Counted from the first letter of the stretch, positions 5,856 through 24,000 are shown. The stretch is DNA of 24,000 nucleotides from Clostridium cavendishii DSM 21758 (GCF_900141845.1 NZ_FQZB01000006.1:131165-155164), one strand, 5' to 3'. A program made the numbers and translations. The notes: generated by a model not told the origin, from the sequence alone.

Positions 5856-6764
5856 TTATTTTAATGTATTAATAATATCAATTTTTTTAGCAAACCACTC
5901 ACATATTTCTTTATTTTGATTACTACTTGAAAGAAAATCAGATAATGGCTTTTCAAAATAATAAATATTTACACTTGTATCTTCAACACATCCATCAAAT
6001 ATATTTTCATTTTCCTTTATCTTATTTGTAATGTTCCCAAATTCACTATTGTTTTTTGCAATAACAAGACTAACAACCACCTTAGGTATTTTACCCTCAC
6101 CTCTAAACTCAAATCCAACGATAACTTCTGAATATCCATCTCCAATAATATTTTCACTCCACATAACATACTGTTCATTTAGACATATTTGTTTAAGTCT
6201 TTCATAATCACGTTCATAAGGCTTTCCAAAACACTCTGTTAATTTTGGCTTAACCATATCTAAACACTCATCCATTTTTGCTATTGTAGCATTAATATTA
6301 CTAAGAACTATTAAATCTTGAAAATTAAAATCTCCTGCACTTGACATACCTTCACCCCTTAAAAATTCTAAACATTCTTCTATAATCTTATTTTCTTTAT
6401 ATTGATTCAAAAATGCATATACATCACTCCACCTATATTGTTCAAAGTTAATATTTGAAATATCCTTTTTATCATAATACTTTGTACAATATCTTAAATA
6501 CACATTCTTATTATCATTTACTTTTATTTCATTTAAAACTTTTGAATATCGTCCTAACTGTCGTTCTCCCTCTGAAGAATTAACCTTATTCTCAATAAAA
6601 CAAATGCTTTCTTTATTCTTAACAACTATATCTATAATACAATCCATATCTCCTTGAAGATAATATTTTTCTTGAGAATCAATAGAAAATCCCGTACCCT
6701 CTATTAAAAGAAACTTATTAACAAACTTATCTAATAGTTTATTATCTTGCTCCAACGTTCCCAC
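5856..6764 (-). CDS. PD-(D/E)xK nuclease-family protein (302 aa as tracked; 5' end probably damaged)
   Basis: Core motif D...ExK followed by QLxRY: GDMDCIIDIVVKNKESICFIENKVNSSEGERQLGRY. The tracked start is GTG (6762-6764). The same frame stays open for 30 more codons upstream (to the stop at 6855-6857) with no ATG/GTG/TTG. See the finding on the 5' frameshift. Confidence 0.65.
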   Translation of the reverse strand: MGTLEQDNKLLDKFVNKFLLIEGTGFSIDSQEKYYLQGDMDCIIDIVVKNKESICFIENKVNSSEGERQLGRYSKVLNEIKVNDNKNVYLRYCTKYYDKKDISNINFEQYRWSDVYAFLNQYKENKIIEECLEFLRGEGMSSAGDFNFQDLIVLSNINATIAKMDECLDMVKPKLTECFGKPYERDYERLKQICLNEQYVMWSENIIGDGYSEVIVGFEFRGEGKIPKVVVSLVIAKNNSEFGNITNKIKENENIFDGCVEDTSVNIYYFEKPLSDFLSSSNQNKEICEWFAKKIDIINTLK

Positions 6765-7155: not shown

Positions 7156-7539
7156 CTATCTAGTCTTCAAAGCATCAACAACCAAAATATCAGCAGAAAC
7201 CCACTTTTGATCATCTAACTTACCAAAATCAATCCACTTAGCATCATTATGAGCATTCAAGCTTAAAGTTCCACCAGAAATCTCACAAATAAAACAATGC
7301 ATAGTAAGATGAAAATTTGGATAATCATAATCAACAGTAGTTAAAAACTCTAATCCATTAATATCAAGTTCTAGCTCCTCCTTAATCTCACGAACAAGAG
7401 CCTCTTCCCTAGACTCACCACTCTCAACTTTTCCACCTGGAAACTCCCACATATTAACGAAATCCCCATAGCCTCTTCTAGTAATAAATATCTTATCATC
7501 CTTCTTTAAAATAGCTGCAACTACCTCTATAGTCTTCAT
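7156..7539 (-). CDS. Nudix hydrolase, MutT-like nucleoside triphosphate pyrophosphohydrolase (127 aa)
   Basis: Complete Nudix box GX5EX7REUXEEXGU: GGKVESGESREEALVREIKEELEL. Size and the N-terminal beta-strand pattern (IEVVAAILKKDDKIFITRR) are typical of MutT-like enzymes. SD AGAGG lies 7 nt upstream of the ATG. Confidence 0.9.
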   Translation of the reverse strand: MKTIEVVAAILKKDDKIFITRRGYGDFVNMWEFPGGKVESGESREEALVREIKEELELDINGLEFLTTVDYDYPNFHLTMHCFICEISGGTLSLNAHNDAKWIDFGKLDDQKWVSADILVVDALKTR

Positions 7540-8140: not shown

Positions 8141-8383
8141 TTAAAAATACTGCTCTAAATCTTCTACCTTTTCTAATTCAAAAATATCTCCAGCTATAAC
8201 CTCTATTTGCTCTAATTTAAGATTTAAAATCTTTTCTCTGTATCCATCTGGAAGCTTTTTAAATCTTCTTATTAATTGCTTTAACAACAAGTCAGCTTTT
8301 CCCTTAGTTTCTCCATTGGCCTCACCTATGGAAATTCCTTCTTCTTTACCTTCTTCATATATCATTCTTCCAACATCAGTCAT
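8141..8383 (-). CDS. possible internally initiated small protein (80 aa) in frame within the Rpn gene, RpnS-like
   Basis: In-frame ATG at 8381-8383 (MTDVGRMIYEEGKEEG…) preceded by a perfect AAGGAGG (reverse complement of 8392-8398) with an 8-nt spacer. The product would be colinear with the stand-alone 79-aa ORF at 7751-7990, whose own start codon aligns with this internal Met. Confidence 0.4.
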   Translation of the reverse strand: MTDVGRMIYEEGKEEGISIGEANGETKGKADLLLKQLIRRFKKLPDGYREKILNLKLEQIEVIAGDIFELEKVEDLEQYF

Positions 8384-9025
8384 GCTAACAACCTCCTTAA
8401 ATCTCTTCTTAGCTTTTTCATCTCCAAACTTGTCAAATAAAGCATATAAAAGAGTTAAACATTTAGTCTTCTCTTCTTCATTTTTAATATCCTTAGCTAT
8501 CTCTATACTATCTAATGTAATATCACTTTTACTCTTTTCACTTTCCATAAGTGGAATGAAACTTAATGTCATAATATCTTGTTCGGTTAGCTCTTCTCCA
8601 TTATCTACTTTAGTTTTAATTCTTTCATAATTTTCATCCCCATTTAGCTTACTCATATAAAAGCATTCTAATGTATAATTTATCGAACCACAATTAATAT
8701 TTGTAACTACGTCCTTTATATCTGATGAATACACTACTACGGTTCTTATATTTTTTCTACTCATATAATGAAGAGATGCATCATAATACAAAAATCTTGC
8801 TATATCATCCCTTTTATCAGTAGTTTGAAACTCAAAATGCAAATAATCATCCGTCTCTGTATAAAATAGATAATCCATAGCACTAGTCTTAATATCTATA
8901 TTCTTAATTTCCGTTTGTGCTGGCTTTTTTAGCTTAACATCTAAGTTAAAAAACTCTGATGCACTATCCTTAAAAATCTCCATGGCTTTCTTGAATACAG
9001 CATCTTCAACCTTATTATAATCCAT
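8141..9025 (-). CDS. Rpn/YhgA-family recombination-promoting nuclease / putative transposase (PD-(D/E)xK), 294 aa
   Basis: The N-terminal half has the YhgA/Rpn pattern (…DYLFYTETDDYLHFEFQTTDKRDDIARFLYYDASLHYMSRKNIRTVVVYSS…). The C-terminal G-rich repeat plus helical tail ends in EDLEQYF. I prefer the ATG at 9023-9025 (MDYNKVEDAVF…), which has GGAAGGAG 7 nt upstream. The tracked 315-aa form starts at a TTG (9086-9088) with no comparable SD. Confidence 0.8.
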   Translation of the reverse strand: MDYNKVEDAVFKKAMEIFKDSASEFFNLDVKLKKPAQTEIKNIDIKTSAMDYLFYTETDDYLHFEFQTTDKRDDIARFLYYDASLHYMSRKNIRTVVVYSSDIKDVVTNINCGSINYTLECFYMSKLNGDENYERIKTKVDNGEELTEQDIMTLSFIPLMESEKSKSDITLDSIEIAKDIKNEEEKTKCLTLLYALFDKFGDEKAKKRFKEVVSMTDVGRMIYEEGKEEGISIGEANGETKGKADLLLKQLIRRFKKLPDGYREKILNLKLEQIEVIAGDIFELEKVEDLEQYF

Positions 9026-9227
9026 TTTAAAACTCCTTCCAAGTAGGCTTTTATTAATATATTTGCCAATTTGGGAGGAGTTATGCAAATGTATATTCTG
9101 TTTTGAAAATTAATTTAACTCGTTGTGCTAGTTAAATTATTAACTTCATTCTAACCTATAACTTCAAATCATCTTCTAATATTAACCACCTCATCAGTAT
9201 CTCCAAAATAGATTACCAGTATAATAT

Positions 9228-9277: not shown

Positions 9278-11938
9278 TTATTTTGAATACTTATTAAGCA
9301 CTTCGCATAAGTATTGATAATATTGAGTGTTAGAAAGCTTATTATCTATAAACGAAGTTTCCATACCTGACTTTCTTAACTTTTCAATCCACTCTAAAGC
9401 CTTTTCTTTACCAAACCCTTTATTAAGCATTCCATAATACATGTATGCATATTCATTACTGATATTTGTGTTAAAAATTAAAGGATTATCTGAATTGATA
9501 TTTATAAGTACATTATTTTCTTCAAAGCCTTCAACATTATTTATATTGTAAGCTTGGCTGTCAAATACAGCATCTAATTCTCCTATACTAGTATTCGAAC
9601 TTGGATTTATTTCAACTACTATTCCTTTAGTTGAAAGTTCATTTACCAATTCTCTTTTTACTTCATTAATTATTTCCTTTTGAATGTTATTTGATTGTAC
9701 ATAAATAGGCTCACTAATCTTATCTAAATAGCATTTACAATTATATGCATGAGTTATTTTTTCTGCATTCCAAATAGAACTTTGATGTTTTTCTATTTTT
9801 ACGCAAAGAACCTCATTATTATTTTCAATCAAGTTTTCAGCTGATTTTTTATAGTTTTCATTTTTTTGAAATTTATTAAATCTTAATTGGTAAGCTTCAT
9901 ATAACATAGGAATATTTATTCCATTCATGTTTTTAAATATATCCTTTGCCAATGAATATATTTCTCTTTCTAAAAACAGATTAACTGCCACATTTTTAGA
10001 AATAGAATTTGTGTATACTCCCCATACCCATAACAAGTTATCAAGATATTCTCCTCTAGGAAGTATTACTACCGTATTTGCATTTACCCACTTATTTGGA
10101 TCAATTCCTAGAGCTATAGCATGCCCTATTCTATCACCAGAATGAAACTTACAAAAGGTTACAACTTCATGTATTCTTCTTAACCCTGATAATATATGTC
10201 TAAACTCTTCACCGGCGTGGAAGGTATAGCATAGACTTTTATATCTTACACTACTTCCATCTTTTCCTTGCTTAATTAGTGAATCAATAGAACTATCTCT
10301 AGCCCTTTTGTATATAGGTGCAAATACCTGTACCGGAGTGTTATTTTCAAGATTTGCAGCATCTATTCCTAATATAAAGTATGAGAGATATGGTGATTCA
10401 TTTCTTAGATTCAATAAATTTTGAATCAAAACATCATAATCTTCTTGAATCTTTTTAAAAGAAATTTCACTTGGGTTACTTTTACCATCAAAAGCAAGCC
10501 AACATTTTTCATCTCCATCTTCATCTTTTCTTTTAATTAAATGAAATACTAATCCGATCCTAGGAAAATCAACATTACTATCTTCATTTGTAGAATATTC
10601 ATCATCTATAACCTTTTTATAAGCTGAAAGTATACTTAGTAAATTTTTTTTAAAATCACTTTCATTTTTAGATATACTAAACCTTAATTCTAATCTTTTT
10701 AAATACTCATTTTGAAATAAAGTTCTAAACAATAGTTCATAATATGCTTCATCGCTTAATCCACTGCTGCCCAAAAATTTAGTTGCTCTATCAAAAAAGT
10801 TTGAGAAATTATCCAATCCTTTTATAGTTGAACTTTGAACCACTTGTTGATAAAATTCATTTTTAATCCTAATATATTTTAATAAAATTTTAAATAAAAA
10901 TGGTTCTTTTGTTTCTTCATATTTTGTAAAAGCCTTCATTAAAAATACATTCTCACCATAAGTATTGATTCCTTTGCATTCAGTAAATATCCTAAACACA
11001 ATATCTTCTTTTTTATCATTATCTTTTATCTGATATTGTTTGTTTAAGTCTTCCAACAATTTAAGCAATTCAATATTAGTAATCTCTTTTTCTTGTCCAC
11101 TCACTACTAATAATATATTTTTAATATTTTTTAACTCACCTTTGCAATACTCCTCTATTGTTATATCTGAGTCATTTTGATATTTCATATAAAACATAAC
11201 TATATTCCTATATATAGCTGCTAATATGAAATATCTGTGAGGATTTTCTTTGAATTCTCCTTCTCCATTTTTAAAGTACTTAACTTTTTTAATATTTTTC
11301 GCTTTTATCCTTTGATTCATAAGCTGTTCCCAAAGCAATATAAAGTTAAACCCAGAATTAGCATGTAAATGATTTTCAGCTACACCTTTCACAAGTAAAT
11401 CATCTAACTGAGAATCTGCCAAGCTTATATCTGAATAATAGCCATCCAATTCTCTAAAATCAACAATGTTATTTTTAATCATATATAATATTGTAAATAA
11501 ATCCATAGAAATTATTGAATTTATATTACGAAACACTTCAATTTTCTTATACTCTTCATAAGGCCCTATAAATTCATCATCCAAATTATTTTTCCAATAC
11601 TTGTACACTATCTTTCCATTTCTGTGAGATATCAAAGTAGTAGTAAATTTTCTTAAATTTTCATAATAGCATTCATAAACTTTGTCTTCATTAATTTCTC
11701 TTTCTCTTAAAAATGGATAATACTTATTAAGAATTAAATAAACCTCATCCAAGTTTTTTATTTCAGATGTTTCACTTATTTTATAAACTAATTCTTCCAA
11801 TAAAAAACTTTTATTTTTCTTCTCACTAGGATCAGCTATTTTTAAAAATGTATCTTCTTCAAAAAAGAACAAATCTTTAAATGGTATCAATGCAACATTT
11901 AAAATTTCTCTAATTTTAGTATTCATTTGCATCTGCAT
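9278..11938 (-). CDS. rdrB: divergent adenosine-deaminase-fold protein (886 aa), RdrB-like (RADAR deaminase)
   Basis: All adenosine-deaminase signature motifs occur in the canonical order. NH190LH192 (nt 11363-11371). G524IDAAN. H574AGE577 (nt 10208-10219). DRIGH606 (nt 10121-10123). E776INPSSN782. S816D817NP (D817 at nt 9488-9490). The protein is far larger than a housekeeping ADA and sits directly behind a ~940-aa ATPase gene, overlapping it. Three in-frame ATGs (11938, 11932, 11926); GAGGA spacing favours 11932. Confidence 0.8.
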   Translation of the reverse strand: MQMQMNTKIREILNVALIPFKDLFFFEEDTFLKIADPSEKKNKSFLLEELVYKISETSEIKNLDEVYLILNKYYPFLREREINEDKVYECYYENLRKFTTTLISHRNGKIVYKYWKNNLDDEFIGPYEEYKKIEVFRNINSIISMDLFTILYMIKNNIVDFRELDGYYSDISLADSQLDDLLVKGVAENHLHANSGFNFILLWEQLMNQRIKAKNIKKVKYFKNGEGEFKENPHRYFILAAIYRNIVMFYMKYQNDSDITIEEYCKGELKNIKNILLVVSGQEKEITNIELLKLLEDLNKQYQIKDNDKKEDIVFRIFTECKGINTYGENVFLMKAFTKYEETKEPFLFKILLKYIRIKNEFYQQVVQSSTIKGLDNFSNFFDRATKFLGSSGLSDEAYYELLFRTLFQNEYLKRLELRFSISKNESDFKKNLLSILSAYKKVIDDEYSTNEDSNVDFPRIGLVFHLIKRKDEDGDEKCWLAFDGKSNPSEISFKKIQEDYDVLIQNLLNLRNESPYLSYFILGIDAANLENNTPVQVFAPIYKRARDSSIDSLIKQGKDGSSVRYKSLCYTFHAGEEFRHILSGLRRIHEVVTFCKFHSGDRIGHAIALGIDPNKWVNANTVVILPRGEYLDNLLWVWGVYTNSISKNVAVNLFLEREIYSLAKDIFKNMNGINIPMLYEAYQLRFNKFQKNENYKKSAENLIENNNEVLCVKIEKHQSSIWNAEKITHAYNCKCYLDKISEPIYVQSNNIQKEIINEVKRELVNELSTKGIVVEINPSSNTSIGELDAVFDSQAYNINNVEGFEENNVLININSDNPLIFNTNISNEYAYMYYGMLNKGFGKEKALEWIEKLRKSGMETSFIDNKLSNTQYYQYLCEVLNKYSK

Positions 11939-14735
11939 TGTCCTCTTCTTCAGGTAATTCTAAATCAAATTCTTTATAGAATAATTCTTCCTCAGCTTTT
12001 GCTTTCTTAAATGCTTCCTCTAAAGCTTTTTTCATTGAATTCTTTTTTTGCTCTAAATTTATAATCATTTCTGTTTCAGCTGAATTAACATTTCTATATT
12101 TAATATACTCTTGGATAATAAAATTAAATACAGGTTCTTCTATATCTAAATAAGCTTCTTTCTGTAATGTTTCAAGTAAATTTCTCGCTTCAATAACACC
12201 ATACCAAGCTGTACTCTTATAACCAAGATAACGAAGTTTTTCAACAATTTTTATGTAATCACCAATTGAAACTTTCTCTTTTTCACTTCCATCTTCAACT
12301 ATTATACTTTTAATAAATTCATGTGTTTTTCTATATACTGTTTTAGAATTATATTCAACATTATAAAATTTTCTAAATTCTTCTTTGAAATTTTCATCAT
12401 TTATATCTATAATATTAATCATCCCAACAACTACATCTATTTTTTTGTGAACTTCATCTCTTAACAGTTCATCAATCTTTGTTTTATTATTTTTTACATT
12501 TTGATTATTATCTAATTTCTTTAAAATTTTTATTATAGATTTAGATTCATTATCTAAGTTCTTCAAGTCTTGATCATTATTAACCACTATAATATTGTTT
12601 TTATACTTTTCCTTATTTATATAATTATAAAATAATTGTTTTTTATAGTTTTCATAAACTTTATATGCTTTATTATTTTTTTCATCTTTTTTTTCTGGGT
12701 TTTGCAATAATTGAATCTGATTTTCTGTATATTCTATATTCATCTCATAATCTTTACCTTTTAAAAAACTATATTGATTCAATATTTTTTCAATCTTTTC
12801 ATTCTCAATAGGCTCTCTTGATACTGAATCTAGAAATTCTATTATATGTTTATACTTTTCTCTATCTAAATACCAATTTTTAATCATGTCTCCATTATCA
12901 TAATCTAAAATTAAATTACATAAAATCAAATAAATTTGACGTTTTTCTTTAACACTTAAATCTTTAACTTTTTCATCATCTATTTTAATAATATTTTTTA
13001 GCTTTTCCATGAAAAATAAGGCAAACTTAAAATCAGTATTAAAAATTATCTGATCAATCCAATCATTAATTATTGGATTTTTATCTTTCATAAAATCTTT
13101 AAATTTTTCATTATTAAAGTTTACTTTATCAACATCTACATTTAAAATATTTTCACCTATATTAAATTTATATAAATAGAAAAAATATTTTTTAGCCTCT
13201 TCATATCCTACAACATTTGCTTTTGGCAATAACTCTTTAGTTGTTTGTAATAATATAAAGAAAGTTATATATCTATTTATATACTTTCTCTTTTCTTCTT
13301 TATTATTATCTTCTTTATCATCTTTCTTTCCTTTATCTTTATCAGAATTTAATTCATTTTTAAAACTGTTACTTAGCTTCTTTGTAAAAAGTCTTTTAAA
13401 ATCTATTATTGTATTTTCCTCATTTGATCCCCATTTGATATGCTTTTCATAAATCTTACTTTGATCTTTTATTAAGTCACTTGAAGAATATATAATTGTA
13501 TCTATTAACGATTTAATAAATACAAATCTTTTTTCATCATCTACAAATTCCTCTTTATCATATTTACTTAAATAATAAAATACATTTATTAAACCTCTTG
13601 GTGTTTTATCAAAAATTACATATGGTATTTCCGAGAAAATCTCGTCACTTTTTTTATTTTTCCTCTTAAATATATTGTCTTCACCCATCAAATCATCTAG
13701 TTTTTTATGCAAATATATCGTTTCATTTCCACTTTTATCAACTTGAAATGAAAAATTAGGTATACTCTTAAAATTCCATTTTATAACATTATGCCTAAAT
13801 GCAGGTGGTAACACCTTTTTTAAATATTCATGTGCTAAATATTTTTTTCTACTAATTAAATTATGTTTACTATCAAATAATTCATTATTTTCTACAAGGC
13901 TTGTTGTTGCTAACTTTTCATTTTCTAATAATGCTAAAGTTATAGATTCACTTAATATTTCATAATCTCCAGATAAAAAACATATTATATTAGGATGGCA
14001 AGTATAAGCCATTACTGCATCTATCAATTCTCTACATTTATTTGTTTTTAAATCGATATCATCTATTGTTATAATAATTAATGGCTCTTCACCTTTATTT
14101 AAGTTTCTTTTTACACTAATTAATTCTTCTACGAAAGAATGTAATTTATTGTTAAATTCATAATCAGGTGCTAAAATATAAGAATATTTCTCCTTATAAG
14201 TTTCCATATCACTATAATTTTTCATTATTAAATTACGATATTCAGCATCTTTATAACAATAATATTCTAGAACTTCATTATAACTTCTACTTAACTCATT
14301 ACTTTCTTTAAACCTACATTGATTAAAAAAATCTGAGAACTCTTTATTATCAATTTCATTTTTTTCTATTTCATTTTCTAGAGCTTGCATTTCTTTTTTC
14401 AAAACACCTAATATTGCTCCTAGTATCTTTGTACTATCTCCATATATATCTGGTTCTATTATTGGAAGAACGATATCTTTATTTCCTTCAGCTTCTAAAC
14501 TATTTAAAATAGTATACATAGTTGAAGTTTTTCCTGTTCCCCTTTCGCCAAATAATCCAATAGTATTATTGTATTGCTTCTTACTACTATTATCTCTTTT
14601 TCTATTTATTAACTTTGCTTGTCCTCTTATTTCTTCAATTTGATTGATTATATTATCATATGTAGGAACTATTAATTTAACTTGTACATCACTTAAAGCT
14701 CTGGCGCCTATAAAAACTCCATTTTTATTTTTCAT
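11916..14735 (-). CDS. rdrA: large P-loop NTPase (939 aa), RdrA-like (RADAR ATPase)
   Basis: Walker A GLFGERGTGK69TS (nt 14523-14549) and Walker B PLIIITIDD225-226ID (nt 14052-14063), both in the first 230 aa. About 700 further residues are K/N/E/I-rich with no recognisable motif. Size, position immediately upstream of the deaminase and the 23-nt overlap match RdrA. The family call rests on architecture, not on sequence identity I can verify. Confidence 0.7.
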   Translation of the reverse strand: MKNKNGVFIGARALSDVQVKLIVPTYDNIINQIEEIRGQAKLINRKRDNSSKKQYNNTIGLFGERGTGKTSTMYTILNSLEAEGNKDIVLPIIEPDIYGDSTKILGAILGVLKKEMQALENEIEKNEIDNKEFSDFFNQCRFKESNELSRSYNEVLEYYCYKDAEYRNLIMKNYSDMETYKEKYSYILAPDYEFNNKLHSFVEELISVKRNLNKGEEPLIIITIDDIDLKTNKCRELIDAVMAYTCHPNIICFLSGDYEILSESITLALLENEKLATTSLVENNELFDSKHNLISRKKYLAHEYLKKVLPPAFRHNVIKWNFKSIPNFSFQVDKSGNETIYLHKKLDDLMGEDNIFKRKNKKSDEIFSEIPYVIFDKTPRGLINVFYYLSKYDKEEFVDDEKRFVFIKSLIDTIIYSSSDLIKDQSKIYEKHIKWGSNEENTIIDFKRLFTKKLSNSFKNELNSDKDKGKKDDKEDNNKEEKRKYINRYITFFILLQTTKELLPKANVVGYEEAKKYFFYLYKFNIGENILNVDVDKVNFNNEKFKDFMKDKNPIINDWIDQIIFNTDFKFALFFMEKLKNIIKIDDEKVKDLSVKEKRQIYLILCNLILDYDNGDMIKNWYLDREKYKHIIEFLDSVSREPIENEKIEKILNQYSFLKGKDYEMNIEYTENQIQLLQNPEKKDEKNNKAYKVYENYKKQLFYNYINKEKYKNNIIVVNNDQDLKNLDNESKSIIKILKKLDNNQNVKNNKTKIDELLRDEVHKKIDVVVGMINIIDINDENFKEEFRKFYNVEYNSKTVYRKTHEFIKSIIVEDGSEKEKVSIGDYIKIVEKLRYLGYKSTAWYGVIEARNLLETLQKEAYLDIEEPVFNFIIQEYIKYRNVNSAETEMIINLEQKKNSMKKALEEAFKKAKAEEELFYKEFDLELPEEEDNADANEY

Positions 14736-14776
14736 TTTTTCTTTCCTTCCAATTTTTAAAATTTGTTATCTTATAA

Positions 14777-15262
14777 TTATTTAGTTTTTTCATTTTTTTG
14801 TTCTATATGTTTATTCCAATTATCAACGTCAGCTTTAGAAATATTTTTTATTATCTGAAGCACTTCATCATCATAATTCTTTTTCTCACTAGATTCGCTA
14901 CATTTAATTAATATTTCCATCAATCCATCACCAATATTTTCAACTGCTTGTCTATATCTTAGCCAAGATAATTTATAATTTTTTAAATATGATACTGAAA
15001 TTAAAATATTTATTAATACTGCTATAGCTGAGTTTATAATCTTTGTATTATCATTAAAAACATTCACTAATGGTATTATTGCGGTAAGAATTATTATACT
15101 AATATTAAATAAATTATACCTAGCTCTCCCCCCGTCAGCTTTATTTATATACCATTCCAACTTATAAAATGCTATATCGGATGTCATTTTTGTAATATAT
15201 TCTTTATTAGTTAAATCATCTAATATATTCTTATAAAAATTCAGCTCTGATGATTGCTTCAT
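14777..15262 (-). CDS. small 2-TM membrane protein (161 aa), SLATT/DUF4231-like; RADAR accessory (RdrC/RdrD-type) candidate
   Basis: Two adjacent hydrophobic helices (YNLFNISIIILTAIIPLVNVF and IINSAIAVLINILISVSYL, nt about 14981-15118) are followed by SWLRYRQAVENI, the W-x-RYR-x-x-E pattern I associate with SLATT/DUF4231. AAGGAG lies 9 nt upstream of the ATG. First gene of the operon, 41 nt before the ATPase start. Confidence 0.6.
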   Translation of the reverse strand: MKQSSELNFYKNILDDLTNKEYITKMTSDIAFYKLEWYINKADGGRARYNLFNISIIILTAIIPLVNVFNDNTKIINSAIAVLINILISVSYLKNYKLSWLRYRQAVENIGDGLMEILIKCSESSEKKNYDDEVLQIIKNISKADVDNWNKHIEQKNEKTK

Positions 15263-16796: not shown

Positions 16797-16799
16797 GTT

Positions 16800-16836
16800 A
16801 AAAAAATGAGCAACGTAAATGTTGCTCATTTTTTTA
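16800..16836. terminator. bidirectional rho-independent terminator between convergent genes
   Basis: Perfect 9-bp GC-containing stem (16806-14 atgagcaac / 16821-29 gttgctcat) with loop gtaaat. Flanked by A6-7 (16800-16805) and T6 (16830-16835), which extend the stem and give a U-tract in both directions. Lies between the stops at 16794-96 (+) and 16834-36 (-). Confidence 0.75.
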
Positions 16837-19800
16837 TTTATTCTTTTGCATTTCCATCCAAAAAGCATTATCTTGCATATAGATAACATCTTCAACATTT
16901 CCTAGCTTTACTAAACTCTTATGTTGTTCTAATGACTTTATCTTAGTAAACAGCTCATCTTCCTGTGTCTTATTCGTTGTATTATATATAAACTTTATGT
17001 CTTTTATTGAAAGGTCTGATACCTTGTGTACTATCCAAGTTAGGATATAGTTTGCATACTCATTATCTCCTGTAGAAAAATGGCTTAGTAGCTGTGTTGA
17101 TAGTATTGTTCCTACTCCAAACATTCTACCTTCTTTTAAGATCTTCTTTAAACTTTGGAAATTTTCACACAAGAAGTTATCAGCCTCATCAACTAATATC
17201 ATCTTACTCAACTGTCTATACTTGTCATCAAGTTTACTTTCTCCTAATACTTTCATTTGTGAATAGAAGATATCTAGTATTATACCTACAACTAAGTTTT
17301 GAATATCCGAATCACTGTTTGAAAGGTTTATTACTGTAACTCCATCAATCATATCATATAATGATTTAGAGTTATCCACATCTGGATCAAATATTTCAAA
17401 ATCATATAACTTATCTAAACATGTAAATAGTTTATCTTGCTTTACATCTTCATCATCAAAAAACTCTCTGCATACTTCTGCTATAGTTGGTGGTTTTTTA
17501 GTCCATGTATTTGGATCATTCTTTTTAATTCCACGTTTATCATATGCATTCATTATAAGTTCTTTTAATTTGTTCTCTTGGACTACACCTAAACCAAAAG
17601 CTGTAGTCATTGTATGTTTCAAAGCATTAGCAGTGTATAATGGTAATAAGTTTTTCTCCTTATTTCCCTGAACTAATTCTAGTGGATTAAATGGAAGATG
17701 ATATGTCTCATATACCTTAGCATTTGTAGCCTCAACAAATTCATTATCTATATAATCACCTTTATAATCAAATATTAACAATCCAATCTTTTTACCATCA
17801 ATATTTTGATAAGTATTTTTATTTAATTGATATATAAGAGATTTAGTAAACTGAGTTTTACCAGTTCCCATAGTTCCAATTATACCTGTATTAGTATGAT
17901 TATTTTGTATTGAATCAGTTGGATTCCAAATCACCTCACAATCTCTATGAATATCTCTTCCAAAAAGAACTGATAATGGCCCTTTAGTTTCTGCAACTGC
18001 CCCAGTATCTTCACCACTATTTCCATCATATATCGCACTTGATTCTTCATCATTTGAATTATCATTAATAGACGTTTCTTCTTTCATTTCACAAACTCTA
18101 CCTTCATATAGGTTATATAATAATGTATCACTCTTTATATCGCTCTTATCTAATATAAAATTGTTCTTTATTTCTTCAACACTTCTTAAAATATTTCTAT
18201 ATCCTGATGCTTCTGGGAATACTAATTCTAAAATCTTATTTCCCTTATCATATTCTTCCTGATTAAAAGCATCTCCTAATTCATCAACACCAATTGAAAC
18301 AAGTTCACCATTCTTTTCAAATGATATATCACTTTTAAAAGTAAATATAGCACCTCTTCCAATTATCTCATCTAAACTATTAGATATTCTATAATCATCA
18401 TTTAATAACTTTGCTCTTACATCAGTTTCTATAATAGAATCCCAATTTTGTTCATCCCACACATTATAAAGCTTTAATTTCTCGATGCTTACAAGAACTA
18501 ATTTAATTAGAAAATCTCTAAATATCTTTGCTTGTAATTTATCATTGATTTCTTTGCTTATATTCCTTTCTATATGATTTCTTGTTTTGTAAGCTTGTAG
18601 CTTCGCCTTTTTAGTTACATCCCCTTTAATTTGCCCAATCTTAACTTCAATTGGATAATAGTGAACATCTATATTACCATCAGCACAACATTCTATTCCT
18701 ACTAATAACAAGTCATCTGAATAAGCACCATCACCACTTAAATTTTTTACTGAGAACAAACCTTCTTTACTACTTAAACCACAACCTTTGGATACTCTTA
18801 GAATTTCCTCTAATGAAATTGGGACCCATACAATTTTTTTATTGTAAAAATATGACAAACTTAACTTTATAGTAGATACGATACTAAGCTTCTCTCTATC
18901 TTCATATCCATTACAAGAAATAATTTTTAATAACCAATCTCCATTTATCGCATTAAAACAGTTTATTACTTTAGTTATTGACTCTTCATCATTTCCTAAT
19001 AATACATTTTTATTTTCTAAGAAACTCTTTATTACTTCCTTATATTGCTTAGTCTTTTTAGTTACTGTAATAGAATCATATCCAGAAGATGGTGTATATT
19101 GATCACTATAATGTATAATAAGTAAATCTTTTTCTTCAATAGTATCTTTAAAAAATTGTAATCCAACCATTGGATTTATGAATGTTACCCAATTTGCAGA
19201 TTCATAAATACGATTTAATTGATCTTCTTTATATTCATCTATAGCGGTAGTTTTGCACCTACTATCATCAAATGGTGATTCATTTTCAGCAGAACAAATT
19301 AATGCATTCATTTTAGTAGCCATTTTTAGAAGTGTATTTTTAGAATGAATAAATTTAGTTCCATACCCTGTTCTATATGATTTAGATATTTCTTTAGAAG
19401 GAACTGATGATAATAATCCACCAAGTGATACACCCGTGTTTATATTATCCATTATCGTATTTTTATTAGAGAACTCATGCTCCATTTCGTAGAATGTTAT
19501 ATGACTATATTCATACTTAGTAGTATCATAATTTTTTATATAACAGCTAAGCTTTGAATTTACGATATCAAAAATATCATCCTTAGAATACTTCTTATTG
19601 CTAGATTTTATTGCAAATGATAAACCTAGCTTTTCCTCTGCATCCTCAACATGCACATAATTTTGAAGTTCCTCAAATACACTATCACCAGACTTATTGT
19701 ATATATTAATAATAAGTGGTCTTAACTTCTCAATTCCCTTACTCTTTAATCCTTCAGTATAATAGTCTATTATACCTTGTAAAATATCTTTAGAGTATCC

Positions 19801-22107
19801 TGTATTAATTAAATTAATCTTTAATGGCAGTTCTGTAGATAAAAATAAAGTCTTAAAGTGTTTTATAAATTCATTTATTTTTTCTCTAACTAACTTCTTA
19901 ACAAATCCTCTGTTTCTTTCATTAAAATCAATATCATTTATTACATATTGCTTCCACTCTTTAGAATGATTTTGTTCTAAAGATCTATAAAGCTTTTCTC
20001 CACCAAAAGATATATAAGGAATGAGGTTTGTTGAATCTAATTTATTAGCAATTTCTTTTTCTAAATCTTCCTCATCAGAAATCACTTTATCCTTTAACTC
20101 TTCTGTGATCATAAGTTGATATGACACATTAATAGGGTGTAATGGTGTTAGTAAGATCTGTCTAGCTGAACCCATTACTTCTATTGTCCCAACTCTTAGT
20201 AAATCAACAATTTCATCACACATATTGTCATTGTACTCAATCTTTTCCAATTTGGAATAGTATATATCAATATACGTTTTTAATCTTTCTTCTAAATCTT
20301 CATCAATATAAGCTAAGCTTGGTAAAACAACATTTGATTTATAGTATTCAAAAATTCTGTTATAAGCTTCTTTTAACTTATCACAAACTTTTAACTCTCT
20401 AATCTTTAGTTTTCCATTTGATTCTACGAAGGCCATTCCTCCATTTTTCAAGATAAATTCTTCTCTATCAAGATTAACTTTAAATTCATCATAAGCAAAA
20501 TTAACTTCACCATCTTTACTAATTTTGTTATCTAAAAATTTATAGCTCCCCTTATCTCTTAATTTATTTATCCAAATTTGTCTTCCACTAATACGTGTAA
20601 TCTTAGAATTGCTTCCAACAATATTAAAAGGAATTATTAGATTATCTAGCCTAAGATTAAATCTATATGCATCTTCATTTTCATCTATTTTTATCTTATT
20701 TTTCACCTTAAACTTATTAATAGCGTTAATAGGTACATTCTCATCTTGGAAATTCAAAGTTATTGATGATGTATCTTCACCATATGGATTTAACGTAAAC
20801 TCTGAATCCGATGTCATGAGCGTAATGTTTTGCTCTTTTTTAGTTATCTTTATAGTGTAATTAGTTCTTACAACTGTATCCTCAAATATAGCTTTATCCA
20901 TTGGAATAACGACGATCTTAAACTCATAATTACTCTTTCCTGAATAAGATACCTTACAAAAACTAACTTCGTCTTCCAATTCTTCTAATATAACATTAAT
21001 CTTCCTATTATTTATCTTAGCTGAAACATTCTGCCCAAAATCACATTTAACACCTTTACCTTTCATAGCTTCTAACTTATTATCAAAAACAAAAGATAAT
21101 TTGATAGTATCAACTTTATCTTTATTAAAAATAATTATGTTTCTCTTTCTTCTTTGTGCCTTAGTTGTACCTTCTTCCTTCTCCCAATAATCTTCCTTAG
21201 AGATATTTTCTATAGAACTACATTCATAGATGATATCCTTTTCCTCATAATTATCCATAGACTGCCTAACAACTTTATATTCTTCATTAAACCAGGCTTT
21301 ATTAGCTAATTTCTTTTTTCCTGTTTCATCTAAAAACTTTTCTAAATTACTCTCTATATCTCCACCATACTTATGGATATTGTCTATCTTTAAGTACGCT
21401 TGCGAGTTCTCATTTAACCTACTAATAGCTTCCTTCTCATCATTAATTGTATCTAGCTTAAGATCTCTAAATAATTCAAATTCTTTAAATTCAGAATCAT
21501 CTATATAGCCCTTATTTATTATAGATACTATATCGCTATACTGTAATATTGATTGACCTTCATCAGAATCTTCTCGCTCCCTTCTTCTTAGGTCAAACTT
21601 TAATACATATTTTGCACTTAATGCAAGATTACTTTTATCTATAAGATAATTTATATCATTTATTAATGTCTTAGAATGGAATGGCATACCTTCCTTTTGA
21701 AAGTTTATAACTCCATCTGTGATAGTATCTTTATTACTTGTATGAATGAATAATATTGCTGAATTCTTAAATTGCGACTTCATGTTGGTACTAACTTCAT
21801 TTCTTAATGTAGCTAAGAAATCTGGATTAACACCATCAATTGTAGCTGCAACAATTAATATAATATCATTAAACTTAATTGAATATGTTGTATATTCCTC
21901 ATACTTCTCATTAACTTGATATTTAAATAGTTTACTGTCAGAGACGTTTTTTATTTCTTCATATAAGTGCTTTACATCTGACTCTTTTTCAAATTGAATT
22001 TCATATCTATCACCATAATAAATTCTTGTCCCATCAAAATATTCAACAACCTTTTTAGCTAAAAAATTATAAAATTGATCTAACATATAATGCATCCCCA
22101 CTATCAC
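16834..22107 (-). CDS. 1757-aa multidomain protein: central PD-(D/E)xK-like nuclease motif plus C-terminal FtsK/HerA-type P-loop ATPase; DptH (DndH)-like by architecture
   Basis: Walker A GIIGTMGTGKTQ (nt 17851-17886) and Walker B MILVDEADNF (nt 17173-17202) lie in the last ~380 aa. Nuclease-like motif is SDDLLLVGIE…DGNIDVHYYPIEVKIG (nt 18640-18717). It is the last, largest gene of a coupled three-gene operon. The tracked start is GTG (22105-07); the ATG at 22084-86 has GGGGA 8 nt upstream and may be the real start. The CDS is near-certain; the DptH assignment is only moderately supported. Confidence 0.55.
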   Translation of the reverse strand: MIVGMHYMLDQFYNFLAKKVVEYFDGTRIYYGDRYEIQFEKESDVKHLYEEIKNVSDSKLFKYQVNEKYEEYTTYSIKFNDIILIVAATIDGVNPDFLATLRNEVSTNMKSQFKNSAILFIHTSNKDTITDGVINFQKEGMPFHSKTLINDINYLIDKSNLALSAKYVLKFDLRRREREDSDEGQSILQYSDIVSIINKGYIDDSEFKEFELFRDLKLDTINDEKEAISRLNENSQAYLKIDNIHKYGGDIESNLEKFLDETGKKKLANKAWFNEEYKVVRQSMDNYEEKDIIYECSSIENISKEDYWEKEEGTTKAQRRKRNIIIFNKDKVDTIKLSFVFDNKLEAMKGKGVKCDFGQNVSAKINNRKINVILEELEDEVSFCKVSYSGKSNYEFKIVVIPMDKAIFEDTVVRTNYTIKITKKEQNITLMTSDSEFTLNPYGEDTSSITLNFQDENVPINAINKFKVKNKIKIDENEDAYRFNLRLDNLIIPFNIVGSNSKITRISGRQIWINKLRDKGSYKFLDNKISKDGEVNFAYDEFKVNLDREEFILKNGGMAFVESNGKLKIRELKVCDKLKEAYNRIFEYYKSNVVLPSLAYIDEDLEERLKTYIDIYYSKLEKIEYNDNMCDEIVDLLRVGTIEVMGSARQILLTPLHPINVSYQLMITEELKDKVISDEEDLEKEIANKLDSTNLIPYISFGGEKLYRSLEQNHSKEWKQYVINDIDFNERNRGFVKKLVREKINEFIKHFKTLFLSTELPLKINLINTGYSKDILQGIIDYYTEGLKSKGIEKLRPLIINIYNKSGDSVFEELQNYVHVEDAEEKLGLSFAIKSSNKKYSKDDIFDIVNSKLSCYIKNYDTTKYEYSHITFYEMEHEFSNKNTIMDNINTGVSLGGLLSSVPSKEISKSYRTGYGTKFIHSKNTLLKMATKMNALICSAENESPFDDSRCKTTAIDEYKEDQLNRIYESANWVTFINPMVGLQFFKDTIEEKDLLIIHYSDQYTPSSGYDSITVTKKTKQYKEVIKSFLENKNVLLGNDEESITKVINCFNAINGDWLLKIISCNGYEDREKLSIVSTIKLSLSYFYNKKIVWVPISLEEILRVSKGCGLSSKEGLFSVKNLSGDGAYSDDLLLVGIECCADGNIDVHYYPIEVKIGQIKGDVTKKAKLQAYKTRNHIERNISKEINDKLQAKIFRDFLIKLVLVSIEKLKLYNVWDEQNWDSIIETDVRAKLLNDDYRISNSLDEIIGRGAIFTFKSDISFEKNGELVSIGVDELGDAFNQEEYDKGNKILELVFPEASGYRNILRSVEEIKNNFILDKSDIKSDTLLYNLYEGRVCEMKEETSINDNSNDEESSAIYDGNSGEDTGAVAETKGPLSVLFGRDIHRDCEVIWNPTDSIQNNHTNTGIIGTMGTGKTQFTKSLIYQLNKNTYQNIDGKKIGLLIFDYKGDYIDNEFVEATNAKVYETYHLPFNPLELVQGNKEKNLLPLYTANALKHTMTTAFGLGVVQENKLKELIMNAYDKRGIKKNDPNTWTKKPPTIAEVCREFFDDEDVKQDKLFTCLDKLYDFEIFDPDVDNSKSLYDMIDGVTVINLSNSDSDIQNLVVGIILDIFYSQMKVLGESKLDDKYRQLSKMILVDEADNFLCENFQSLKKILKEGRMFGVGTILSTQLLSHFSTGDNEYANYILTWIVHKVSDLSIKDIKFIYNTTNKTQEDELFTKIKSLEQHKSLVKLGNVEDVIYMQDNAFWMEMQKNK

Positions 22108-23479
22108 TTTTCTTTTCTAATACATTTAATCTTTGATAAAAATCAATTAATCTATTTCTTGAATCCTTATCTAGATAAACCCCTCTTCTTTCAAGTTCTT
22201 TTATAATGTATTGTAATCTAACCTTTTGCTCATCTTTTATACATAGTTTAGTTAATAGTATTACATATTCTTCTGTTAAGTTTAATGTCATCCCATTTCT
22301 TCCCCTATTTCTTAAGAAGTTATTTCTACAAAACTCAAAGAACCAATCGTAATAACGACGACTTAACTCTATGGCATTTGTAACCTTCGAATGATGATTA
22401 TGTATTAAGCCATATAATTTTTCAACTTCAACTAAAATATCATCCTCAGTATCAGAGTCAAATTCATACTCTGTCCAATATTCATTTTCATCTTTTATAG
22501 CAGCTTCGTACATAGCTACTACTTCAGATAAATTCTGCCATGTCTCTAGTTTCTCATCATCATTCATTTTGCTAACTAATTCTTTAAATTCCTTGTAAGT
22601 ATAGTTATTATGACCAGCTTCTGAACAGTTTAAAATATTTAGACATATTTCATGAGATCTTAAACTATTTATAGCATTTTCTACTAAGCACCATCCATTT
22701 TCATATCCTATACGCCCTTTAGAAACCTTTTCCCAATCAAACGTAAAGTATATTAGCGGTACTTCCTTTTCATCAAACATATTATTTAAATTACCAACTG
22801 CCCTTAATATATAAACTACATAATAGAACTTTAAAAGAGTTACTATTTGAGAACAAAAATTCCTCTTTCCTTTTAAAAGATATTTCAAATCCTCATTAAA
22901 AACAGACGTAATTTCTTCTGCGAAATTCTTATATTGTTTCTTTTTCTTTTCACTATTTATAGCTACCTCTGGTAGCTTATCTAAAATTAAATCAGTTAAA
23001 ACATTTCCTGTTTTGTTTTCAAACACTTCTTCAATACATTTTCCATAGTTCTCTTTTTCATCAAATAAAACATCATATAGAAAATTCCCCATTTCTATGT
23101 TTTCTTCCTCTGTCATTGAATAAACTAAAACTTTAGGATGAAACTTTGCAATGCCCTTATCTTCATCAAAGAAAATTGTTGAAACTACTTCTTTAAACTT
23201 TTCTTTATCATTTTCAGTCTCAAACTCTACTGAATTTATAATATCTGAAAAGAATACCTCTTTATTAAACTCAGTTACATTACAATTTAATAAGTTACAA
23301 CAAAAAGCTCCAATACACTCATCAAACCTTTTTATGATATCCTTATGCTCCTTTAATGGTCTAACATTATATGGAACTATTAATTTATCTTTAGTTTTAG
23401 GCTTATGCGTTGGTTTCTTAGTCGGATCCTTCATACTATAATCCTTCTTTACTTTGCTTATATCAATCTTATATCCCAT
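22067..23479 (-). CDS. 470-aa protein of unknown biochemistry; DptG (DndG)-like by size and operon position
   Basis: Its ATG (23477-79) shares one nt with the upstream gene's TAA (TAATG) and has GAGGTG 8 nt upstream. Its 3' end overlaps the 1757-aa gene by 20-41 nt. No catalytic motif recognised. The family call is positional only. Confidence 0.4.
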   Translation of the reverse strand: MGYKIDISKVKKDYSMKDPTKKPTHKPKTKDKLIVPYNVRPLKEHKDIIKRFDECIGAFCCNLLNCNVTEFNKEVFFSDIINSVEFETENDKEKFKEVVSTIFFDEDKGIAKFHPKVLVYSMTEEENIEMGNFLYDVLFDEKENYGKCIEEVFENKTGNVLTDLILDKLPEVAINSEKKKKQYKNFAEEITSVFNEDLKYLLKGKRNFCSQIVTLLKFYYVVYILRAVGNLNNMFDEKEVPLIYFTFDWEKVSKGRIGYENGWCLVENAINSLRSHEICLNILNCSEAGHNNYTYKEFKELVSKMNDDEKLETWQNLSEVVAMYEAAIKDENEYWTEYEFDSDTEDDILVEVEKLYGLIHNHHSKVTNAIELSRRYYDWFFEFCRNNFLRNRGRNGMTLNLTEEYVILLTKLCIKDEQKVRLQYIIKELERRGVYLDKDSRNRLIDFYQRLNVLEKKSDSGDALYVRSIL

Positions 23480-24000
23480 TATTTAATCACCTCAAATTTA
23501 TACTTACCAAACTTTTTAGTGAACTTAAATGTTTCTACCCCATCAGCTATGTTTTCTTTAATATAGATCTCTTTATTTTGCTCTCCATAATTCTTTATCT
23601 TTTCAATGGAATCAATAAAGCTAATAAAATCACTTCTTTCCTTTTTCTTTGGAATATACCCTTGTCTTACTTTTGTTAATAATTTATATAGCTTGTAATC
23701 AAGCTTAATAGTTAATCTATCACCCTTATTCTTTATAACAAAATCTAATATTATATTTGAAACAAACTTATCTAGCCTTCCCGTTAAAACTTTATTTTCT
23801 AATTCATCTTCTTCACATTCTAAATATAACTTTTCATATGTCTTAAACCTATTTTGCGATTTCCCCATATTTATTCTTATATTACTATCTGAAGATTTAA
23901 CATTGTCCAATTTATATATAGCTTCACTTACCAAATCATATAAATCTCCTAATTCTGTAATATTATTAGTATTAAAGACATACAAGTATTTAATAAATTC
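23479..24000 (-). CDS. C-terminal part (at least 173 codons) of the first visible gene of the operon; possibly DptF-like; truncated by the window edge
   Basis: The tracked start (23983-85) is a TTG, and the frame stays open to position 24000 (…EFIKY-L-YVFNT…), so the gene most likely begins beyond the window. No motif in the visible part. Confidence 0.35.
   Translation of the reverse strand, partial: EFIKYLYVFNTNNITELGDLYDLVSEAIYKLDNVKSSDSNIRINMGKSQNRFKTYEKLYLECEEDELENKVLTGRLDKFVSNIILDFVIKNKGDRLTIKLDYKLYKLLTKVRQGYIPKKKERSDFISFIDSIEKIKNYGEQNKEIYIKENIADGVETFKFTKKFGKYKFEVIK

Follow-up and report, generated by a model that had tools for sequence, protein, structure and literature searches.

The family literature describes canonical Dnd systems in which phosphorothioate marks made by DndABCDE spare the host DNA, and a DndFGH complex that has DNA nickase and translocase activity. 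In this complex, DNA-binding domains come from DptG and DptH, DptF has a P-loop kinase-like module, and DptH joins a restriction-endonuclease domain to a HerA/FtsK motor. Rakesh, Aravind and Krishnan (Nucleic Acids Research, 2024; PMC10853773) argued that DndFGH commonly occurs uncoupled from DndABCDE, and proposed for the HerA/FtsK domain of DptH a separate evolutionary history with repeated capture. PbeABCD was re-described in the same work as a CxC ABC-ATPase/DndE system, the associated modification genes being DndCDEA or, sometimes instead of phosphorothioate genes, cytosine methylases (PMC10853773). Here we analyse a dptF-dptG-dptH operon found in a stretch of 24,000 nt from Clostridium cavendishii DSM 21758 (the window). 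This DptFGH has no Dnd partner in view; it shares a conserved cassette with a radical-SAM-type enzyme and its winged-helix-type paralogue.

The DptFGH operon and the search for modification genes

Coordinates are those of the window unless an L-number is given. The source contig, L001 (Logan SRR4096532_41, 39,988 bp), is 100% identical to the window across the overlap and reaches 7.4 kb past its right edge, up to the contig end, which brings the C. cavendishii DNA inspected to 31.4 kb. Every large open reading frame of the window and of L001 1-7938 was scanned with Pfam, NCBIfam and PADLOC.

An earlier note, made from the window sequence, had described three same-strand reading frames of at least 173, about 470 and about 1750 aa, had compared them to DptF, DptG and DptH, and had proposed scanning them with the models of these families and with PADLOC. 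The frames are on the minus strand as described (173 aa visible, 470 aa and 1750-1757 aa; Table 1), and the scans were positive for all three proteins, each being above its curated NCBIfam equivalog cut-off and matched end to end by PADLOC. DptH gave 652.2 bits with TIGR03237 (cut-off 620.65, residues 10-1261) and 1780 bits with PADLOC DndH (residues 31-1751). DptG reached 177 bits with TIGR03236 (cut-off 20) and 387.6 bits with DndG, and the NCBI annotation of this exact protein in C. cavendishii DSM 21758 is DptG. Full-length DptF, which extends past the right edge (592 aa, L001 6160-7938), scored 214.1 bits with TIGR03238 (cut-off 50) and 479.6 bits with DndF; the 173-aa window fragment alone gave 40.2 bits, under the cut-off.

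The large N-terminal region of DptH bears a restriction-endonuclease motif, YSDDL...YYPIEVK, and its C-terminal part is a HerA/FtsK-type P-loop ATPase (Walker A GTMGTGKT, Walker B ILVDEADN), with residues 1402-1460 matching Pfam TrwB_AAD_bind. The endonuclease motif, Walker A GxxGxGKT and the Walker B DE are invariant in an alignment of five DptH that are 30-50% identical, so that the C-terminal P-loop and the GTGKT and E-V-K motifs pointed out in the earlier note are found here and in divergent relatives. DptF has the P-loop CGSAGDGKSH, kept as CGSxGDGKSH in the three divergent DptF aligned. From these matches, the operon almost certainly belongs to the DptFGH family, and with its predicted catalytic motifs intact it is apparently a bona fide, functional module. 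Weak PADLOC matches to MADS components (DptG to mad7, 26.3 bits; DptH to mad8, 59.6 bits; the neighbouring kinase to mad6, 107.8 bits) are tiny against those to the DndG, DndH and Stk2 (644.4 bits) models, and no methyltransferase is present; membership of MADS was rejected.

DptH is a mosaic. Of its parts, the HerA/FtsK one (16858-18069) alone gave the best tblastn match, at 45% identity to Aliivibrio wodanis DptH, whereas the DptH of the metagenomic locus L017 and of Bacillus wiedmannii match Aliivibrio DptH in their N-terminal 1,100-1,200 aa only. This apparent mosaicism fits the published account of repeated HerA/FtsK capture (PMC10853773).

The three genes follow each other in the order F-G-H with overlaps of 1 nt and 20-41 nt, both junctions having been noticed earlier. 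Direct reading of TAATG at 23477-23481 shows that the dptF stop (TAA) and the dptG ATG share one base. The start of dptH is ambiguous between GTG 22107 (1757 aa), ATG 22095 (1753 aa) and ATG 22086 (1750 aa), and the dptG stop codon at 22067-22069 accordingly lies 41, 29 or 20 nt inside the dptH frame, within the interval 22067-22107 given before. A Shine-Dalgarno-like GGGG run is placed 9 nt 5′ of ATG 22086, which is also where the public gene call begins. At the other end, a terminator-like hairpin is located between the convergent 3′ ends of dptH and of a 333-aa gene.

No dnd, ssp or methyltransferase gene was detected at positions 1-24000 by the family scans, in line with the earlier note, nor any dndA-E gene in the 7.4 kb past the right edge. 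The latter region holds the rest of dptF, a 607-aa radical-SAM-like gene, and a gene for a 500-aa Stk2 kinase, itself preceded by a 379-aa gene without assigned family and, where the contig ends, by a MazG-like fragment. The possibility, left by that note, of dndBCDE lying to the right of the window thus did not hold as far as the contig goes. Its other branch, an orphan or modification-independent relative, is the better supported one, because these 7.4 kb lack dndBCDE and no dnd gene is found in the 31.4 kb. We also used DndB, DndC, DndD, DndE, DptF and DptH from the canonical dptFGH-dndBCDE locus of the Aliivibrio wodanis plasmid pAWOD_2 as tblastn queries against the window and every fetched locus, the cassette loci described below being taken with up to 10 kb of flank. 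DndB, DndC and DndE had zero matches in the window or in any of these loci, and DndD matched PbeC genes only; as a control, the pAWOD_2 DptF and DptH do detect those of C. cavendishii.

A more distant DptFGH (41% DptF identity) was seen in L005, a Clostridiaceae metagenome-assembled genome. There, a 356-aa gene directly following dptH (L005 19297-20367) gave 56.3 bits with the NCBIfam DGQHR (DndB-like) model, just under its cut-off of 58.85, and an empty PADLOC scan, so that its identity as DndB is borderline. Its placement is that of DGQHR in the canonical Aliivibrio locus, and dnd genes may thus lie just past the fetched flank.

A five-gene cassette with a radical-SAM-type partner

A DptF search of species-representative genomes returned four loci. 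In C. hydrogeniformans and two Clostridium metagenome-assembled genomes, what is common to the source contig is the 607-aa gene with dptF, dptG and dptH, and in two of the three also the 333-aa gene. The full order, namely the 607-aa radical-SAM-type gene, dptF, dptG, dptH and the convergent 333-aa gene, is found in C. hydrogeniformans (L002) and in four metagenomic contigs (L004, L093, L094 and L095); L003 keeps the radical-SAM gene and dptFGH, and lacks the 333-aa gene. Two contigs checked directly have the same five-gene order, with 333-aa proteins 43% and 60% identical to that of C. cavendishii. In L002, where both sides can be compared, the five genes alone match the source contig and the flanks differ. 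The cassette moves between species, since clusters at 90% identity take in C. botulinum H04402 065 and C. tetani. We conclude that DptFGH is here the core of a conserved, mobile five-gene cassette.

The 607-aa protein has no Pfam, NCBIfam or PADLOC match at E < 0.01, and a profile search of Protein Data Bank (PDB) sequences with its family was empty even at E 10. The family is large, with at least 5,589 homologues in a word-indexed search and 1,894 representatives of clusters at 50% identity; its members are about 620 aa long, or about 360-450 aa when they have the N-terminal core only. The residues of C134-x3-C138-x-F140-C141 do not vary among 54 sequences, and across a more diverse set of 62 members they are at least 90% conserved; CX3CX(aromatic)C is the canonical radical-SAM cluster motif. 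Pfam Radical_SAM (PF04055) matches at this very site in 48 of the 62 diverse members, below threshold (best E 2.3e-5). In the AlphaFold model (predicted local distance difference test, pLDDT, 88.6; predicted template modelling score 0.84), the highest-probability Foldseek matches of the core in the PDB are the radical-SAM enzymes SuiB and BlsE, and those of the C-terminus are winged-helix proteins (ROQ, MarR/ArsR types), all with weak E-values. More precise identities (QueE, SPL, YgiQ) were discarded, as the protein is hit by none of the NCBIfam or Pfam models for these families and the UniRef label "YgiQ" is automatic. We also discarded the idea that the 607-aa gene is the partner of the adjoining Stk2 kinase, which is missing from the other cassette loci.

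The 333-aa protein is kept beside dptH in L002, L004, L093, L094 and L095, at identities down to 43%, and its few full-length homologues share their contigs with proteins closely related to the 607-aa one. Residues 156-327 (in the numbering of the 340-aa reading frame) align by hhalign with the C-terminus of the radical-SAM family (probability 98.3%, E 1.4e-14); judged by this profile match, its winged-helix-type C-terminal domain is homologous to the C-terminal domain of that family. The AlphaFold model (pLDDT 88.8) has an N-terminal PLD-like fold, and Foldseek relates it to TrmBL2, PLD, phosphatidylserine synthase and BfiI with probabilities of 0.96-1.0 and E-values of only about 0.01-0.06. 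No HKD motif is present in the 333-aa protein, and the corresponding positions are not conserved.

Radical-SAM genes of this family are found next to other modules as well. A metagenome search gave 80 loci, 53 of which had enough flank to be informative: PbeABCD adjoins the gene in 32, DptFGH in 1 (L017), and other neighbours in 20. In the 32 PbeABCD loci the gene is directly upstream of PbeABCD. Likewise, in Clostridium sp. AWRP and a JGI genome it lies 12-20 nt 5′ of genes for a 700-aa helicase, a 59-aa protein, an ABC ATPase of about 650 aa and a protein of about 150 aa; neighbours of this type score 722.8 bits as PbeA and 321.2 bits as PbeC with PADLOC. Loci with a short-type radical-SAM protein usually encode, between it and PbeA, a separate protein of about 220 aa that resembles the 333-aa protein. 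None of the components PbeA (an HKD-SF2 helicase), PbeB (small), PbeC (a CxC ABC ATPase) and PbeD (DndE-like) is present in the window or source contig. A third kind of cluster accounts for 13 of the 20 other loci; it combines a ParB_N-like protein with an SNF2 helicase (DpdE/ZorD-like) and with proteins that fall into the radical-SAM/333-aa group on clustering (Table 1). Its 489-aa helicase matches PADLOC ZorD (135 bits) and DpdE (129 bits), and no PADLOC system matches the cluster as a whole. One further locus has a DUF262/GmrSD protein, and another NurA, HerA and an ABC ATPase.

The second DptFGH, that of L017, is 30-34% identical to that of C. cavendishii and above all three curated cut-offs (DptF 254, DptG 157.5 and DptH 736.7 bits); a radical-SAM homologue is again upstream. 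It shares 75% identity with a PbeA-linked family member (L014), against only 55% with the 607-aa protein, and from these pairwise identities the partnership of DptFGH with the family arose, or was exchanged, at least twice. The family tree is a rough neighbour-joining one, without support values, and the argument stands on the identities.

Homologues of the core were detected by tblastn in 17 of 50,697 phage records, the core alone being carried by phages of Oscillospiraceae, Methanomassiliicoccales, Clostridium tetani, Bacteroides/Phocaeicola and Marinitoga. In the Oscillospiraceae phage NatCom_21982, the gene of a 50%-identical core has helicase and HNH genes around it and overlaps a DNA methyltransferase gene at the latter's end, and a gene annotated as PAPS reductase is about 5 kb away. 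A Methanomassiliicoccales virus has it between a helicase and a ParB-like gene, and the C. tetani phage phiCT453B after replication/recombination genes; the CX3CX2C motif is intact in these three copies. Orphan DNA-modification genes of phages are typically found among replication and modification genes, as are these copies.

In the gap between the radical-SAM gene and dptF (L001 6040-6110), GGCTAGCTT, with the palindrome GCTAGC, occurs twice at a spacing of about 50 nt, one copy on either side of an imperfect inverted repeat. This arrangement is kept in the three most similar cassette loci, in part also in a locus 72-75% identical, and may be an operator.

Proposed role of the radical-SAM enzyme

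To our knowledge, the only function demonstrated so far for DndFGH and PbeABCD is the reading of phosphorothioate DNA. Many copies of both have no Dnd genes, and current work answers this by calling them standalone. A radical-SAM enzyme adjoining both modules offers a testable alternative, a different and oxygen-sensitive DNA mark.

The radical-SAM gene and DptFGH are likely to be coupled in function, because their adjacency is repeated and independent and the family is in near-constant association with restriction-like modules. If the two are coupled, a self-marking role of the enzyme, the weakest link of the argument, has an even or slightly better chance of being correct. Taken overall, the proposal that it marks host DNA, in the role of DndABCDE or of the CxC/Pbe methylases, is evenly poised. 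The radical-SAM enzyme would then replace DndABCDE as the DNA-marking arm, and its own C-terminal domain, perhaps together with the 333-aa paralogue, would direct it to DNA; the chemical mark on host DNA would hold DptFGH off, and unmarked incoming DNA would be nicked and translocated by it.

A wider version, which we hold tentatively and with less than even confidence, is that the radical-SAM core of about 360 aa, with a fused or separate winged-helix-type domain of about 240 aa, catalyses a previously unrecognised DNA-modification chemistry used as self mark. This core would be modular, serving DptFGH, PbeABCD (in the majority of cases), SNF2/ParB-like, DUF262/GmrSD and NurA-HerA partners; phages of anaerobes would have captured it as an anti-restriction gene, and part of the orphan DndFGH and PbeABCD would be explained.

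Several points weigh against self-marking by this enzyme. The case for DNA modification is built from gene context alone, and the radical-SAM profile and fold scores stay sub-threshold. The radical-SAM gene and dptF do not form one tight operon, given gaps of 160 nt in C. cavendishii and 206 nt in L017 and separate transcription signals, the L017 gap having a clear terminator and a promoter-like TGATATAAT. In L005, DptFGH has no radical-SAM neighbour. Dnd or ssp genes are possible elsewhere in the C. cavendishii genome, the inspected part being 31.4 kb. Finally, DndFGH has been proposed as a standalone counter-invader system working without a modification module (PMC10853773).

This last proposal is the strongest rival, unlikely as we judge it to be. 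Needing no host mark, DptFGH would recognise and cut invader DNA by means of DNA-binding and nucleotide-sensing domains of its own, and the radical-SAM and 333-aa genes would be accessory, regulatory, backup or mere defence neighbours. It agrees with the count of all eight Dnd genes together in just 316 of 5228 taxa (PMC10853773), with a Bacillus wiedmannii plasmid whose DptFGH has no annotated dnd gene within 15 kb, and with the terminator that the radical-SAM gene has of its own in L017. However, it leaves unexplained why DptFGH of two lineages 30-34% identical both keep a radical-SAM gene, and why the family is placed near-constantly by some restriction-like module.

Clearly less probable is a canonical, phosphorothioate-dependent DptFGH whose dndBCDE/iscS or ssp genes are elsewhere in the chromosome, the radical-SAM gene being unrelated to self-marking. 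The share of the genome inspected leaves room for it, unlinked arrangements are reported in the literature, and the DGQHR gene just after dptH in L005 speaks in its favour. Yet the DndB, DndC and DndE queries gave zero signal in the window or the cassette loci, and the cassette travels among Clostridium species as five genes with no dnd.

Prokaryotic viperins are radical-SAM antiviral enzymes that modify nucleotides, which counts for an enzyme directed at a nucleotide or small molecule: viperin-like, or producing a signal for the P-loop kinase-like domain of DptF and for partner-module ATPases, it would trigger or arm restriction and leave no self mark. Even with DptF predicted to be a nucleotide sensor (PMC10853773), we regard this as the least probable explanation and a very unlikely one, as the family carries or pairs with a winged-helix-type domain, phage copies are beside DNA methyltransferase and ParB-like genes, and a host-arming signal gene would be an odd one for a phage to retain.

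If self-marking by the radical-SAM enzyme is correct, the DNA epigenetics of anaerobes, C. botulinum and C. tetani among them, would gain a new enzyme class, and defence annotation a family that its tools currently miss. Pfam, NCBIfam and PADLOC have no model of this family. Should the proposal be wrong, a clean case of decoupled DptFGH remains, within a defence island that also has RADAR-like and Stk2 systems.

Neighbouring genes and comparison with described systems

Just downstream of the cassette, on the minus strand, is a divergent RADAR-like system (9278-15262), which we take as a distant variant because all its scores are far under the equivalog cut-offs (Table 1). Judged by their predicted products, Stk2, the RADAR-like system and DptFGH together make a defence island. 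Genes for PDDEXK_4, NUDIX and Rpn-like proteins separate the RADAR-like genes from the housekeeping-looking left end and may be further defence-island or mobile-element cargo. In a 610-aa HNH protein farther left, a Cys-rich module of about 150 aa occurs, by eye, in two near-duplicate copies in the N-terminal part. The remaining reading frames of the window encode an MFS transporter, a GNAT acetyltransferase and two proteins without family match.

Table 1. Features of the C. cavendishii locus and of loci with related radical-SAM genes (window coordinates unless an L-number is given)
Feature	Position	Strand	Basis or remark
dptF, 3′ part	23479..24000	-	last 173 codons and stop; open to right window edge
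dptG, 470 aa	22067..23479	-	TIGR03236, PADLOC DndG, NCBI annotation
dptH, 1750-1757 aa	16834..22107	-	TIGR03237, PADLOC DndH; stop codon at 16834
Terminator-like hairpin, 17-bp stem, T-runs both sides	16799..16836 (L001 14581-14618)	.	consensus scan; pattern match
Cassette gene 5, 333 aa	15795..16796	+	convergent with dptH; reading frame open from TTG 15774 (340 aa)
Radical-SAM-type gene, 607 aa	L001 4176-5999		just upstream of dptF, outside window; Cys motif, sub-threshold profile and fold matches
Stk2-type Ser/Thr kinase, 500 aa	L001 2183-3685 (~3.7-5.2 kb past right edge)		PADLOC Stk2 644.4 bits, residues 7-500
SLATT/DUF4231 protein	14777-15262	-	RADAR-like system
P-loop ATPase, 939 aa	11916-14735	-	weak RdrA match, 45.4 bits (cut-off 600)
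Adenosine-deaminase protein, 886 aa	9278-11938	-	RdrB 201.8 bits (cut-off 800); PADLOC RdrB 122.6 bits
Rpn-family/DUF4351 recombination-promoting nuclease-like protein	8141-9088	-	
NUDIX hydrolase	7156-7539	-	
PD-(D/E)XK-family protein	5856-6764	-	PDDEXK_4
610-aa protein with C-terminal HNH motif	2227-4059	-	Pfam HNH, residues 439-483
Third cluster: radical-SAM core (~450 aa), ParB_N-like 337 aa, 138 aa, SNF2 helicase 489 aa, ~330 aa, 340-1100 aa winged-helix-type	L066, L075, L078, L080, L083-L085, L088-L090, others		genes in this order
Phage copies of radical-SAM core	L098 6001-7125; L099 5986-7296; L100 6001-6876		

Orphan DptFGH is already published and not new in itself; what appears new is its conserved radical-SAM partner. 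A full-text literature search, with most subscription journals outside it, found no paper tying a radical-SAM enzyme to DndFGH or PbeABCD, which does not prove novelty.

Compared to canonical Dnd systems (Salmonella enterica Cerro 87, E. coli B7A and pAWOD_2), the C. cavendishii operon has the same three families, likewise arranged F-G-H and overlapping at their junctions. In pAWOD_2, however, the modification genes begin about 130 nt after dptH, with DGQHR at about 750 nt and dndE at about 2.2 kb, whereas the C. cavendishii dptH has no adjoining dndBCDE or DGQHR gene, and the conserved flanks are a radical-SAM enzyme and a PLD-like/winged-helix protein. With SspABCD-SspFGH (PMC8092258), the likeness is a three-gene restriction arm of F/G/H type next to a non-Dnd modification arm, which here would be the radical-SAM enzyme; unlike that system, the locus has no Ssp genes, and the DndF, DndG and DndH models fit far better than SspF, which matches DptF weakly (26.4 bits with PADLOC).

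The standalone DndFGH of PMC10853773 share with this operon the lack of an adjacent Dnd modification module and a mosaic DptH. No radical-SAM partner is described for them, the term "radical-SAM" being used there for DndC only, and the C. cavendishii operon differs from them by its conserved two-gene accompaniment. Lastly, DndCDEA-PbeABCD and the CxC-ABC-ATPase/DndE systems (Xiong et al. 2019, PMC6459918; PMC10853773) follow the same logic, that of a modification arm combined with an exchangeable restriction arm. In the window the restriction arm is DptFGH, and the proposed modifier would be a radical-SAM protein, not DndC/DndA or a methyltransferase.

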